Positions 6,001 to 11,205 of a stretch of DNA of 11,205 nucleotides are shown piece by piece. Numbering within the stretch: position 1 is the stretch's first letter; the number at the start of each line of letters is the position of its first letter. Made by a program: the position numbers. Source of the DNA: an uncultured bacterium (GTDB lineage Bacteria; Krumholzibacteriota; Krumholzibacteriia; Krumholzibacteriales; Krumholzibacteriaceae); assembly GCA_965371515.1 (NCBI GenBank), contig CBDUYR010000070.1, positions 1 through 11,205 of the forward strand. Reading direction: 5' to 3'.

Positions 6001-9000
6001 CGAGGAGATTTACACGCGGCTAGCTGCCGCGGCGAGAGGTGATAACGATCGGAGCGCCTGAAGTCTGCAGGAACCGCAATTCCGGCGATGATTCCGGGAA
6101 GGGAACGGGGAAGGTGCGCGGCATTCCCGTTGTGATGTATCACGGCGTCGGGCCCGACAGGCCCGGCTGGATCTGGAACCACCTGCTTACCCCGCTCGAC
6201 GTGTTCGAGGGGCAGATGAAGGCCCTCAGGGACAATGGCTGGACGACGATCTCGCTAGCTGAGCTGCATGCCCATGTATCCGCCGGAGAACCTGTTCCCG
6301 AAAAGCCCGTTGTTCTCACGTTCGATGACGGATACCTCGACAATTATATCCTCGCCTGGCCGATACTGAAGAAGTACGGGCACCGGGCGGTTATCTGGAT
6401 GACGACTGATTTCATCGATCCTTCTCCCGATCCGAGGCCGACACTGGACAGCGGTATCGAGGGGGGCGCCTGGAAGTCGGGAATGCCCCTCAGCGGGTTT
6501 CTCTCGATGGCGGAGATGAGGCTGATGGAGGCTTCGGGGCATATCGAGATCCAGAGCCACGCGAAGACTCACACGTGGTATCCGATCGGGCCGAAGATCG
6601 TCGATTTTCACAGGCCGATCGGCGTCGAGGGATACGCACCTCCGCCCTGGCTTGCGTGGAACACATTTCCCGAGAGCAAGCATGAGTATATGTCACGGGG
6701 CAGGGAGGACGAGATCCCCTGCGGCACGCCGATCTATCGGCACGCCAAGTCGCTCGAGGCGCCGAAATACTTCCCCGACCCCGCGCTCTCTGACAGGCTC
6801 GTTTCACATGTCCTCAAGAACGGCGGCGACAATTTCTTCGCGAGGGACGGATGGCGGAGCGAGCTTGAGAGGATAGCGACGGAGAACCCCCCGTCGGCCG
6901 ACAGTGTGGAAACGCAGGAGGAATTCCGCGAGAGGGTCATGTTCGAACTGACCGAATCGAAACGGATACTGACAGAGGGGCTGGGCCACAGTGTCGATTT
7001 TCTGTGCTGGCCGGGAGGTGGCAGGAATCCCGAGGTCATCGAGTTGGCGAAGAAGGCGGGGTATCTCGCCACGACGACCCACTACCAGGTGATGGATAGA
7101 AGGAATGTCCCCGGGCAGGACCCGTCGGAGATCGGGAGGGTCGGCAGCGGCTCGCCGTGGGCCTGGAGGGGGAAGCTCTTCCGCAGGACCGATCCCGGTT
7201 TCTTCATATCGATCCTTGAAAAGTTCGCCGGCGGTCAAAATACGGTTTGGACGATGAGATTCTATAAATTAAAATACTTTCTGCGCTATTATCTTACCGG
7301 CACGAGATGACTAGGAGCTGATTGAACCGATGATCCCGCCCCTTCCCGAATCACTGGTAAGAAACGTCGTGTATCCCTTATACAGGGGATTCCGCAAGGA
7401 CAGGGTCCTCGATATCCTCGACGAGCTCGAACACAACCAGTTTCTTCCCGAGAGAGAGATAGAGGATCTGAAGTGGCGCAAGCTGTCCGTTCTGCTCGAA
7501 GCGGCCGGATCCCACGTTCCGTATTACAGAGATCTCTTCGAGCGCGAGGGGATCGACCCGGCCTCCTTCGAGAGCCCGGCGGACATGGTGGCAATACCAT
7601 TTCTGACGAAGGAGATAATCCGGAGCGAGAAAAGGAAGCTGATCTCGAAAGACCCTCTGCGCAGAGGATATCCCTCGAGCACGGGAGGATCGACGGGGGA
7701 GCCGCTCCATTTCTGGTGCGACACCGCCGCCGGCCCGGTGCGCCGTGCGACCACGATGAGGGGGTACCGCTGGACTGGATTCGACATAGGCGGAAGGCAG
7801 GCGATGCTGTGGGGATTCCATCTCGACAGGCCGTTGAAGGAGCGGATCTCCGAGGGCGCGAAGAACTTTTTCAACAACATCATGACCCTTTCCTCGTTCG
7901 ACATGACCCCGGAGATGATGAGGAGATACGCGGTGAGGCTCAGGCGGTTCAGGCCGTCCATCGTGATCGGCTACCCTTCCGCGCTGACGGCCTTTTCCGA
8001 ATTCTGCCGGGGCGCGGGCGTCCGCCTGCCCTCCCTGAAGGCCGTGGTAACGGGAGGCGAGAGGCTCTTTCCGCATCAGAGGGACCTGATCGAGGAGGCC
8101 TTCCACGCCGACGTGTTCGACCGCTACGGAAGCAGGGAATTTTCCGCCGTCGCGCACGAATGTTCCGAGCACAAGGGACTGCATGTTTTCAACGACCTCT
8201 TTCACGTCGAGGTCATCCACGAAAGCGGGCGCGCGGCGCAGAGCGGTGAAATAGGGGAACTGGTCATCACCGACCTTTCCAATCTTTACATGCCGTTCAT
8301 AAGGTACAGGACGGGCGATCTTGCCATGCCGACTGAAAGGAAGTGCCCGTGCGGCAGGGGGCTCCCACTGCTCGAGAGGATAGAGGGACGCTCATTCGAC
8401 TCGATCGTCACTCCCGAGGGAAAGAAGGTAGGCGGCTTCTTCTGGACCTGGCTGTCCAGGGCCGTACCCGGCATCGACAGGTTCCAGATCGAGCAGAGAG
8501 ACAGGGCCGGCATCATCTTTCGTATTGTTCCGGGCGAGGGATGGCGGGACGATCATATGGAGGTCCTCGCCGGAAAGATACGCGAGAACTGCTGCGAGGA
8601 TTTCAGGATCGATTTCCAGGTGGTCGACGACATCCCGCTGACGCCGGCGGGAAAGGCGAAATTCATCATCTCGAACATCGAGGAGAGGCTCGTCATCAAA
8701 TCGAAGATCCACAAGGCTCACATAAGCGGCGACGCACCGGAGGAGAACGACTGCCTGCGGATCGATGCGAAGCTTTTGGAACTGGGCAACGTGGCGGTGT
8801 TCGAGAAGATCCTCATAGTCAACGCCACGAGCGGGGCCAGGCTGGAGACCTTCGCACTCGAAGCGGAGAGCGGAAGCGGGGACATCATCGCCTGCGGGGC
8901 GGTTTCGAGGCTCTGCAGGCCTGGAGACGAGATAAGCGTCATGGCATTCACCTGGTCGACCGGGGAATCGGGCGATTTCAGCAACATCCTGGTCGATGAG

Positions 9001-11205
9001 GAGAACAGGTTCGTCAGATACCTTACCGAGAAGGCAGGCGACAGGATCTGAGCGGCATCCAGTCCCCGAAACGGCTTTTCATCCCGTGGGGTTTGTACTA
9101 TATTCCGAACGATCCTTCACAATGGACTGTTACATGAAATGTCTTCTACTTAAATCGATGATTCTCCGGGCCACCGTAACACAGGCCGATCTGCGCTATG
9201 TGGGAAGCATCACGATAGACGAAGACCTGATCGACAGGGCCAACCTGAGCGAACACGAGAACGTGTACGTCATCGACCGCACCAACGGCCACAGGCTCCA
9301 GACCTACGTCATCAAGGGAGAGAGGGGAAGTGGTGTGATTGGGATGAACGGCGCTGCCGCCCATCTCGTAAACGAGGGCGACGAGATCGACATCATGGCT
9401 TACAGCTGGTCGTCGGGCGATGCACGTCCCATGCTGATAGAGGTCGATTCGGGCAACAGATTCAAGGGTTACGCAGGCTGACCCGCCGGGATGATCGATG
9501 TTCAATAAAAATCTCAGGCTCTTCACTCTCCAGGGTATACCGGTCGAGATCAATATCTCATGGCTCTTTGTTCTCGCGCTCGTCACGTGGTCGTTTGCCA
9601 CCGGGTTCTATCCCGAATCGTACCCGGGCCTCTTCACATCCGCGGCGAAATGGACGCTGTCGCTGCTCACCGCCCTTCTGCTCTTCACGTCGATACTCAT
9701 CCATGAGTTCAGTCATGCGATTGTTGCATCGAGGGGCGGACTGCCGATCAAGCGGATAACGCTGTTCATGTTCGGCGGCGTCGCCCAGATGGGGCACGAG
9801 GTCGACGAACCGTCGCTCGAGCTGCGCATGGCGGCGGCAGGCCCGCTGATGACCCTGGTCCTTGTCGGTGTGTTTCTGGGGGCGGCGACCCTGGCAAGGG
9901 GCGTTCCGTTCCTCTCGATCCTTTTTGGTACGGTCGGCGCGATTAACATCGGGGTATTCGTCTTCAACATGGTGCCGGGATTCCCTCTCGATGGAGGGAG
10001 GATATTGAGGGCGATCATCTGGAAGAGGACTGGCAACGTCAGGAAGGCGACACGGATCGCTACGGGAGTGGGGAAGGTCTTCGCATGGATCCTCGTGGCG
10101 GGAGGAGCCTTCAATTTTCTCGTGTACGACAACCTTGTCAGCGGAATCTGGATGGTGTTCATCGGACTCTTTCTCAGGCAGGCGGCCGCGAGGAGCTACA
10201 GGCAGATCATATGGAAGAAGTCACTGGCAGAGATGAAGATCGGAGACGTGATGCGCCGGGATATGCCGGCCATCGATCCTTCGACCGATCTCGAGACACT
10301 CGTCGAGGAGTTCTTCCTGCGTTTTCACCTGGACAGCCTGCCGGTCGTGTCAGGAGGGATGCTGCTCGGGATCGTATATCTCGATGATGTTACCGCGATA
10401 GACCGAGGCGAGTGGACCGGCATCTCCGCAGCCGATGTCGTGAGGAAGATCGATCCTTCATCGGTCGCGAGGCCGGATGATCCAGCCTGGACGCTTTTTG
10501 TCCCTCTGGTGCAGCAGGGACGCGGAATCGTACCTGTAGCCGGACCGGACGGACGTCTGGCCGGAGTGGTGACGAGAAGGGACTATTCGGCCCTCCTCGA
10601 TGTGATGTCTACTGTCGGCTCCCGACGTGCGGGCCCCGGCTGATATCAATCTTCGTCGTCGATCGAGGGGTCGTCCTCGAGAAGTGTTGAAACGCCGTAT
10701 TTGCTCGTCTTTTTCTCCCTGGAGCTTCTCTGCTTTAAGACTCTGTGTTCTTCCTGTGACCGCTTGTCCTTGTGTTTCGACCTGTGGGTGTTGGATCTCT
10801 TCTTCAACTCGGTCACTCCTTTCTCGTCCCCCGCAATAGTGAATCGCTTCCGGGAAGAACTTTGCAAGATTTATGACAAGAAGCCCAAGGGGTCCAGTTA
10901 AAAGGCGAAGGAGCTTAATTGCTTGGTAATAATATAAATAACGAGGGGCTCAATGGTGTTGCATGACGCCATTGAGCCCCTCTCACCATTTTTGAGCCCT
11001 GCATTTTGAGAACCGATGAAAACAGCCCCGGTCCAGCCGGCGGGCCGTCAGTCTTCGGTCGGCTTCGGCCTGTTCTTTTCGAACTCGGCCCTGTCGATCT
11101 CGACGTCGAACTCGATCGACTGCCAGATCATCTCCCGGTTCTTCGAACCGTTGGCGTATGACGTCTCGTGGAACGGCACGAGGTATCCGTTGACCGAGCG
11201 GTAGT

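Follow-up and report, generated by a model that had tools for sequence, protein, structure and literature searches.

A PanD active site probably divided between a free subunit and the tail of a CapK-type ligase

Two neighbouring genes in the stretch of DNA analysed here (the window, 11,205 nucleotides) encode PanD-like sequences, neither of them complete: a free subunit (A) and a domain (B) fused to the C-terminus of a ligase. The best explanation, and one that we hold to be likely, is that A and B form an alternating A2B2 heteromeric PanD with two live and two dead sites, feeding pantothenate synthesis. PanD, aspartate 1-decarboxylase, makes the beta-alanine from which pantothenate (vitamin B5) is built. 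The residue patterns, the co-occurrence of A and B, the decay of the ligase and the gene contexts were observed directly, and from them we infer that A and B bind each other, that A is inactive alone, which substrate is used and where the product goes.

Two PanD-like sequences with complementary residues

The fusion (positions 7330-9051, plus strand) is an open reading frame of 573 amino acids. Its N-terminus is a PaaK/CapK-type adenylating domain (residues 1-450, 7330-8679; CapK_C is the name of PF27533) and the remainder is B (residues 451-573, 8680-9051), with a Pfam Asp_decarbox match at residues 454-560 (E 5.9e-20), which bears out the fusion described in an earlier note on this DNA. A (9134-9481, plus strand) is a PanD-like sequence of 115 amino acids that most likely starts at the ATG at 9134; P0084 likewise has 115 amino acids and is 100% identical. 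As that note had also stated, a GT4 family glycosyltransferase gene (4901-6061, plus strand; Pfam Glycos_transf_1, E 7e-37), likely the first of the operon, and a NodB-type polysaccharide deacetylase gene (6039-7310, plus strand, start uncertain; Polysacc_deac_1, E 7e-17, with TFDDG and HAKTH motifs) lie directly upstream of the fusion; both are patchy among relatives. A gene for an M50 peptidase with CBS domains (9498-10643, plus strand), to which no role in the system has been ascribed, lies 3' of A in most loci. A promoter scan gave 6 sites against 2.1 expected, one of them 5' of A (9076-9104), all being consensus matches only; one RNA run (share 0.06) held short contigs from a relative that cover parts of the region, and an Rfam search of the window gave no match.

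A of the window keeps Tyr22, Gly24-Ser25 (9203-9208), Thr57, Tyr58 and Asn72 (PanD numbering), and scores above the curated TIGR00223 cut-off (117.9 versus 106 bits). It has Met9 (9158-9160), Leu11 and Asp86 (9389-9391) as substitutions, the first two visible as KSMILRA where PanD has KSKIHRA (Lys9Met, His11Leu). Among the best 120 of 260 matches to A, Lys9 and His11 were each found in 0/120 and Asp86 in 120/120, while Tyr22, Gly24, Ser25, Tyr58 and Asn72 were each present in 120/120, as were Gly24-Ser25 in combination with Tyr22, Thr57, Tyr58 and Asn72, Arg54, and Arg or His at position 49. Two or three A proteins (L143, L149, P0213) retain His11. Across family-wide PanD representatives Lys9 occupies the scored column in 145/147, both exceptions being themselves A-type proteins, and the pattern in A lies far beyond chance; His11 is found in 144/147. 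The single-copy PanDs of sister orders have all scored residues intact (31/31, including one Cytophagales sequence). Judged by these residues, A, which the earlier note took for the true PanD, is not a normal PanD and is probably inactive on its own. Our literature search found no Lys9 or His11 mutant of PanD, so we infer this inactivity.

B of the window keeps Lys9 (8704-8706), His11 (8710-8712) and Arg54 (8839-8841), and has Asp24-Cys25 (8749-8754), Phe58 and Cys72 at the pyruvoyl-side positions; its ENDC aligns gap-free with YVGS of A. These patterns hold among homologues: Lys9 and His11 in 68/68 each and Arg54 in 69/69, with Tyr58 in 0/69 and Asn72 in 0/68. Asp24 is invariant (68/68), position 25 is Cys in 56, Gly in 9 and Ser in 3, and Gly-Ser occurs in none, so that the replacement of the processing site reported earlier was found again in our own set. 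Position 86 is Ser in 38, Ile in 16, Gly in 14 and Thr in 1 of the 69, and the Ser or Gly of most B sequences may alter the pocket, which counts against the proposed complex. Consistent with the earlier view that the fused domain is not a normal pyruvoyl decarboxylase, B scores below the TIGR00223 cut-off (43.6 versus 106 bits) and is unable by itself to form a pyruvoyl group. Asp-Cys as a new processing site, an option that note had left room for, was rejected as a conserved function and is unlikely, given that 9/68 B sequences have Gly in place of the Cys. By its residues, B is nonetheless not simply dead, as it retains exactly those neighbour-subunit residues that are absent from A.

Our search, with a different query, found 59 fused proteins where 99 had been counted before. 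The NCBI name aspartate 1-decarboxylase, previously thought probably wrong, is carried by 3 of the 59 and is probably half right, in that the protein would be a decarboxylase subunit. Among stand-alone B proteins, P0067 clusters with a 487-amino-acid protein and is probably a fragment; in a metagenome scan, the best 80 of 448 loci did not include DNA for the 124-amino-acid stand-alone B forms.

A proposed A2B2 enzyme and the supply of beta-alanine

According to secondary statements in papers, the active site of PanD lies between subunits, with Lys9 and Arg54 coming from the neighbour. Together with the complementary losses in A and B, this makes an alternating A2B2 arrangement the best reading. 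In the mechanism we propose, A and B would go back to a single intact PanD lineage, each descending from one of two copies. A would self-cleave at Gly24-Ser25 to yield the pyruvoyl group and would also provide Tyr22, Thr57, Tyr58 and Asn72; B, as the C-terminus of the ligase, would pack beside it in an A-B-A-B ring and contribute Lys9, His11 and Arg54, which would hold both carboxylates of aspartate. The pyruvoyl face of A against the neighbour face of B would thus make two complete sites, and the Asp24-Cys25 face of B against the Met9/Leu11/Asp86 face of A two dead, structural ones. The product would most likely be beta-alanine, and the conserved job its supply to PanC for pantothenate.

A structure prediction of the A2B2 complex gave an ipSAE of 0.89 against 0.23 for the best control, a score that may reflect likeness to the solved PanD homotetramer and does not tell A2B2 from A4; the mark used is passed by 51/78 solved complexes and 2/108 mismatched pairs. 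Contacts were at least 90% consistent between runs, partner pLDDT was at least 89, and each A contacted both copies of B. A test for co-evolution by distance correlation was uninformative (rho 0.34 for A with B versus 0.41 for B with the ligase); its set included two loci without A, and its residue counts were left out of the analysis. In a PanD tree, support for A and B as sister clades was only 49/35, by which sisterhood is neither shown nor rejected; the tree analysis also covered a quick tree, from which 4/128 rows were dropped as fragments, and a set of 44 sampled rows.

A PanD-like match was found in 48 of 52 genomes of the order and an intact PanD in none. Both A and B are present in 46 of the 48, even where the genes are separate (G004, G043). 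In G005 (94% complete) A and a PLP decarboxylase are present and B and the ligase were not found. The ligase-B gene of G004 sits on another contig, showing such relocation to be possible. PanC occurs in 51/52 genomes of the order and in 203/208 of the phylum, including families without PanD, so its presence was set aside as insufficient proof of a pantothenate role. Only the comparison of PLP group II decarboxylases is informative: these occur in 12/52 genomes of the order (0/8 in family f3) and in 7/7, 10/10 and 86/91 genomes of three families without PanD. The reductive uracil route was rejected as another source of beta-alanine, as no dihydropyrimidinase exceeded the TIGR02033 cut-off in any of the 52 genomes; the 46 matches below it are probably dihydroorotases, and G015 has one partial match of 226 bits. 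Because most genomes have PanC and lack a PLP decarboxylase, the gene contents suggest that A and B are probably the cell's source of beta-alanine for pantothenate. The window's own genome has one PLP decarboxylase of unassigned substrate, which counts against this reading.

The ligase and its glycan context

All seven features tested in the ligase of the window are intact: the P-loop TGGSTG, YGxxE, TGD, GR, the C-subdomain, the A10 lysine (Lys442) and the N-terminus. The motifs among them are read by the roles that they have in adenylating enzymes generally. The nearest solved folds are BT_0428 and PaaK, and the PaaK equivalog cut-offs are missed (TIGR02155, 91 versus 646 bits; NF041878, 109 versus 700). 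The ligase half groups among CapK_C clusters, and glycosyltransferase or polysaccharide genes surround two of the three regions read for annotated plasmid homologues. Genes similar to the GT4 and deacetylase genes of the window lie near 27 of 39 loci; at L169 and some others the pair is part of a larger glycan cluster that also encodes a flippase, another ligase and additional deacetylases.

The C-subdomain is missing, with several breakpoints, from 16 of 56 fused proteins, all of which keep Lys9, His11 and Arg54 of B (56/56). The ligase is intact at 25 of 27 loci with GT4 or deacetylase genes nearby and at 2 of 12 without, Lys9 and His11 of B being kept in 39/39; 'nearby' here refers to the locus and not to the genome, and G043 was counted as having glycan genes nearby because glycosyltransferase genes lie between its B and A. 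This correlation comprises only two or three phylogenetically independent pairs (sign test, p 0.5). The dN is higher in the ligase than in B even among intact close relatives (ratios 1.9-2.9) and does not separate decayed lineages. The ligase thus repeatedly decays where glycan genes are absent nearby, with B staying intact; it looks like an optional passenger, and the gene is probably kept for its tail.

The earlier note had proposed that the pair makes beta-alanine and ligates it to a glycan acceptor. The ligase does belong to a glycan-amidating family, but B remains intact at loci that have lost the ligase, or keep a degenerate one, and lack the GT4 and deacetylase genes, so the coupling is not obligatory. 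At intact loci there is a nearly even chance that the tethered ligase employs beta-alanine to form an amide on a glycan of the cell surface, a use of the A and B product that would be secondary to pantothenate and is unproven. VpsH of Vibrio cholerae couples glycine to a uronic acid carried on a lipid (PMC13463779, accessible part). By the same logic beta-alanine would act as the amine on an adenylated uronic acid; two UDP-sugar dehydrogenase genes score over cut-off elsewhere in the genome. Alternatively, beta-alanine would be the adenylated acid, joined to a deacetylated amino sugar. Literature searches for beta-alanine in glycans, and for CapK with a deacetylase and PanD, returned nothing relevant. 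More tentatively, a PanD site split across the order may lock a vitamin enzyme onto a glycan ligase: the A2B2 ring would carry two ligases and pass beta-alanine directly to a beta-alanyl modification of a glycan, undescribed in the literature searched, and other lineages would have shed the ligase stepwise down to a stand-alone B of 124 amino acids, never B itself.

Alternative explanations and known systems

A might form a homotetramer of its own, with a remodelled pocket (Met9, Leu11, Arg/His49, Asp86) that decarboxylates aspartate or another amino acid, B being only an activator, stabiliser or tether like the trypanosomatid prozyme or PanZ. We think this unlikely. Asp86 and Arg/His49 are indeed invariant in A (120/120 each, best 120 of 260), Arg54 is kept there although a strict A-B ring would leave it without a part in catalysis, A occurs without B in G005, and dead paralogues that allosterically activate a pyruvoyl enzyme exist (prozyme; PMC10820115, accessible part). 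However, a homotetramer of A gives no account of the exceptionless Lys9, His11 and Arg54 of B, kept even with the ligase decayed; Lys9 is otherwise near-invariant in the family, and an Asp86 beside Arg54 would presumably keep a carboxylate substrate away.

Slightly less probable again is a real heteromer whose substrate is not aspartate but another compound, such as cysteate, with taurine as the product, or a substituted form of aspartate, its purpose being an amine for the ligase to place on a glycan. The replacement of Ile86 by Ser or Gly in 52 of 69 B sequences would suit this, as would the position of the pair in a GT4-deacetylase-ligase operon and, at loci such as L169, in larger glycan clusters; the type 1 capsule of S. 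aureus, whose locus named CapK, presumably contains taurine. Yet both A and B are retained, their residues unaltered, in lineages that have a broken ligase and have lost the glycan genes; these genomes encode PanC and, for the most part, no further candidate for the decarboxylase. Arg54, Thr57, Met88 and Phe90 suit aspartate as the substrate; in another PanD, activity rose with I88M and Y90F (PMC10743139, accessible part). A literature search on cysteate as a substrate of pyruvoyl PanD yielded nothing beyond a paper on a PLP enzyme. Quite improbable is that A is a normal PanD, as its TIGR00223 score would allow, with B dead or otherwise self-processing through Asp-Cys and binding beta-alanine or channelling it to the ligase for glycan amidation. 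Asp24 is invariant in B (68/68), and entry 1PYU, a 102-residue alpha chain that aligns from Cys25 of B, is presumably the Ser25Cys form of E. coli PanD and cleavable; but Lys9 is absent from 120/120 A homologues (best 120 of 260), processing of B is not conserved (Gly25 in 9/68; Tyr58 and Asn72 lost), and B outlives the ligase.

As a homotetramer PanD is a textbook case, and it is also a target for drugs against tuberculosis. The literature searched, which mostly did not cover subscription journals, contained no PanD whose shared active site is spread over two genes. If the A2B2 explanation is true, it offers a clean natural case of complementary losses turning a homomer into an obligate heteromer, and an intact lineage of ancestral type is there for comparison. 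Both parts have about 120 residues and are directly testable, and the system is an in vivo test of how Lys9 and His11 act in trans. Annotation would change too: a product that scores above the PanD cut-off probably has no activity by itself, and the gene labelled 'ligase' probably persists because of its tail. Use of beta-alanine by the ligase would point to an unrecorded glycan decoration.

Known PanD (PF02261, TIGR00223; PDB 2C45, 1PPY, 1VC3) has the same domain as A and B and its site at the subunit interface, and A and B together hold all strictly conserved residues listed in PMC3314653, from Lys9 to Ala75. It is, however, a homotetramer from one gene. Here both copies are incomplete and one forms the tail of a ligase; position 86, Ile in PanD, is occupied by Asp in A and by Ser, Gly or Ile in B, and neither gene belongs to the panBC locus. 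VpsH and other CapK-like ligases (PF27533) share the PaaK-like adenylating domain and the glycan gene context, a likeness drawn without direct alignment to VpsH; as described in the accessible part of PMC13463779, VpsH adds glycine and has no decarboxylase domain, while many ligase orthologues here have decayed. In PanD-PanZ (PMC4410942, accessible part) a second protein is likewise needed for PanD function, but PanZ, which binds CoA and is unrelated to PanD, stays outside the tetramer when it promotes cleavage, and B is a PanD paralogue predicted to lie inside the ring. In trypanosomatids, going by the portion of PMC10820115 available, the homo-oligomeric deoxyhypusine synthase became a heterotetramer of paralogues with one live and one inactive site at each interface, and the prozyme, an inactive paralogue of the pyruvoyl enzyme AdoMetDC, likewise forms a heteromer with it; these eukaryotic systems have different folds and no fusion to a downstream enzyme, and the prozyme is an allosteric partner, whereas B seems to contribute residues to the active site itself. 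In yeast Fcy1 (PMC10888846, accessible part), duplicates with complementary losses function only as a heteromer; that case was made in the laboratory, whereas A and B would have arisen in nature and become fixed throughout a bacterial order.

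Residue losses in the fused and free subunits

The fusion gene (7330-9051, plus strand; 573 aa) encodes in its N-terminal part a PaaK/CapK-type adenylating domain, which scores below all equivalog cut-offs, groups with CapK_C clusters and has BT_0428 and PaaK as its closest solved structures. Residues 454-560 form an Asp_decarbox domain, here called B (PanD numbering of B is the fusion residue number minus 450). A gap-free alignment to the product of the next gene places Asp24-Cys25 of B where PanD has Gly24-Ser25; the same reading frame, domain span and Asp-Cys site had been described in an earlier note. 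The N-terminal motif of B is KSKIHKA. Lys9, His11 and Arg54 are kept in every B sequence (n = 68-69) and Asp24 in 68/68, followed at position 25 by Cys (56), Gly (9) or Ser (3), while position 86 is Ser, Ile or Gly. Tyr58 and Asn72 occur in none of the 68-69 sequences.

Directly downstream lies the gene for the free subunit A (ATG at 9134 to 9481, plus strand; 115 aa), which carries the YVGS site as the earlier note had read. That note took A for the true PanD, an assignment that its residues do not confirm: KSMILRA stands where solved PanDs have KSKIHRA, so both Lys9 and His11 are replaced, and position 86 is Asp. In the top 120 of 260 homologues of A, Lys9 and His11 are each found in 0/120, whereas Asp86, Tyr22, Gly24, Ser25, Thr57, Tyr58 and Asn72 are each found in 120/120. 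For both A and B, the residue patterns of sequences taken from genomes agree with the homologue counts. Arg54 is retained throughout A and His11 in a few A proteins, and B has Ser, Ile or Gly at position 86; in these three respects A and B depart from perfect complementarity. The few A-type proteins with His11 (loci L143:1238-1590 and L149:3982-4335, and protein P0213) have no Lys9, which suggests that Lys9 was lost before His11 in the A line. A sigma-70-like promoter match between the two genes (9076-9104, plus strand; a consensus match only) could permit separate expression of A.

Single-copy PanDs (30 from sister orders and one from Cytophagales) retain all residues compared in 31 of 31 cases. 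Of 150 representatives drawn from the whole family at 50% identity, 147 could be scored for Lys9; 145 of these have it, and the two exceptions are A-type.

Several relatives differ from these patterns. One, a PanD-like protein of 126 aa that stands alone on a contig rich in AT (L170:1193-1573), with a linker-like N-terminal stretch as in the fused form, has Lys9/His11/Arg54, Asp24-Ser25, Phe58 and Trp92, yet retains Asn72; it may be an intermediate or an unfused B of another lineage, and its contig stops before any partner gene would be visible. Proteins P0214, P0216, P0222, P0247 and P0255 keep Gly-Ser and have Met, Gln or Leu in place of Asn72, possibly representing a subfamily that acts on another substrate. 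P0256 is a distinct stand-alone variant with Gly24-Cys25, Gln11, Gln22 and Asp86. P0209 (148 aa), in which the N-half resembles B and the C-half A, would be either an assembly chimera or the result of an in-frame deletion joining both genes.

Distribution and origin of the pair

A and B are the only PanD-like sequences in the window's genome (99.6% complete), where panB and panC are neighbours on a different contig and no panD follows them. A PanD-like match was found in 48/52 genomes of the order; A occurs together with B in 46 of these 48, a total that includes G046, where B is a fragment at the end of a contig. In G033 only B was found, 110 bases short of the end of its contig; in G005 (94% complete) only A was found, and a search there for B and the ligase found neither. 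No intact PanD was found among the sequences read from genomes of the order, and elsewhere in the phylum an order carries either a single ordinary PanD or no PanD at all. The ligase-B gene of G004 has been relocated beside other polysaccharide genes, with A remaining at the home locus; A and B are ~14 kb apart in G043, and G014 has two copies of B.

A, B and the intact PanDs P0070-P0081 form a clade (support 98/96) apart from the sister-order PanDs in a tree of 44 sampled rows. A and B are sisters in the best tree with support of only 49/35, so their duplication within a lineage of the P0070-P0081 type is no more than plausible.

In many genomes of the order the A/B locus is bordered by a conserved divergent operon (1731-4627, minus strand, in the window), in which a gene for an SPFH/Band 7 protein with a double zinc ribbon is followed by two or three for zinc-ribbon proteins without a Pfam match. 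A gene at 1-885 (plus strand) is truncated by the contig start; what remains encodes the C-terminal region of a protein that has seven or more LVIVD repeats.

The ligase, glycan genes and beta-alanine supply

Judged from the homologues, the ligase appears to be optional and B the part retained. The C-terminal subdomain of the ligase is deleted in 16/56 fused proteins of at least 490 aa, at several different breakpoints, and further fused proteins have a degenerate P-loop or lack the A10 lysine; Lys9, His11 and Arg54 of B are intact in 56/56. Several stand-alone B proteins of 124-129 aa are known from protein records alone; for two of these records the cluster has two members of such length, and another shares its cluster with a fused protein. 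Among 39 genome loci with visible upstream DNA, the ligase passes seven of seven motif tests in 25/27 where a GT4 or deacetylase gene is close by, as against 2/12 where none is (raw Fisher p 6e-6), and Lys9 and His11 of B are present in 39/39, glycan genes nearby or not. Because these loci provide just 2-3 phylogenetically independent pairs (sign test p 0.5), the association of ligase intactness with GT4 and deacetylase genes is suggestive only. Family f3 of the order lacks the neighbouring glycan genes and has a mostly degenerate ligase; in the window the ligase is intact and lies downstream of GT4 and deacetylase genes. The ligase motif YGSNE (aa 266-270) pairs with Ile86 of B; where the motif is YGSRE-like, residue 86 is Ser or Gly. 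Since the YGSNE group is one clade of 15, this pairing may reflect common ancestry alone.

PanC is encoded in 51/52 genomes of the order and is present also in families without PanD. PLP group II decarboxylases are found in such families (7/7, 10/10 and 86/91) and in 12/52 genomes of the order, including the window's own and G005, with 0/8 in family f3; no dihydropyrimidinase above the cut-off was found in the order. With these enzymes rare or not detected, A and B together are the only candidate source of beta-alanine in ~40 genomes, among the PanD-like, PLP decarboxylase and dihydropyrimidinase routes searched.

Use of beta-alanine by the ligase, in either direction of amide formation, is plausible, with slightly less than an even chance, and would explain the fusion. 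VpsH, which is partly similar to CapK-like proteins, is described as placing glycine onto lipid-linked uronic acid (PMC13463779). Other CapK paralogues in the same genomes adjoin deacetylase and GT4 genes without any PanD, indicating that the glycan module is independent of PanD. At a second locus type (L125:3949-10165, L045, L062, L063, L135, L136), a fused or unfused ligase occurs with an FrhB-like Fe-S protein, a polysaccharide pyruvyl transferase, GT4 and a deacetylase; the unfused ligase of G011 at such a locus is 57% identical.

A probable heteromeric PanD and known systems

The PanD site is reported to lie where two adjacent subunits meet, the neighbour supplying Arg54 (PMC6969166); Lys9 and Arg54 have been assigned to another subunit (PMC3314653), and strands including residues 2-14 and 82-94 build the adjacent-subunit side (PMC11808261), from which we infer that His11 and Ile86 also belong to that side. 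In a docking model the alpha-carboxylate is held by Lys9 and His11 and the beta-carboxylate by Arg54 (PMC10743139). Given these published subunit origins, the losses in A map to the neighbour face of the site and those in B to its pyruvoyl face, as far as residues can tell. By this comparison neither protein is a canonical PanD, and together they would probably function like one.

A two-plus-two A/B model scored 0.89, versus 0.23 for the best control, on a scale whose mark is reached by 51/78 solved complexes and 2/108 mismatched pairs; as PanD homotetramers have already been solved, this result speaks for likeness to PanD, not for A-B binding. Runs share at least 90% of contacts with a partner pLDDT of at least 89, every A contacts both B copies, and A and B each use both faces. 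Taken together, we consider it fairly probable that A and B compose an obligate A2B2 PanD, providing beta-alanine mainly for pantothenate and carrying an optional tethered glycan ligase. The feature first noticed, a fusion with an Asp-Cys site, is real, and its first reading is partly right; A is probably not a normal PanD.

Within the literature covered (main texts, most subscription journals lying outside coverage), no heteromeric or duplicated PanD was found. PanZ, unlike B, is described as unrelated to PanD (PMC4410942). By analogy, the nearest known architectures to the A/B pair would be prozyme and trypanosomatid deoxyhypusine synthase, the latter reported as a heterotetramer built from paralogues in which each interface has one live site and one inactive site (PMC10820115), and a homomer-to-heteromer transition obtained experimentally (PMC10888846) offers a matching evolutionary model for A and B.
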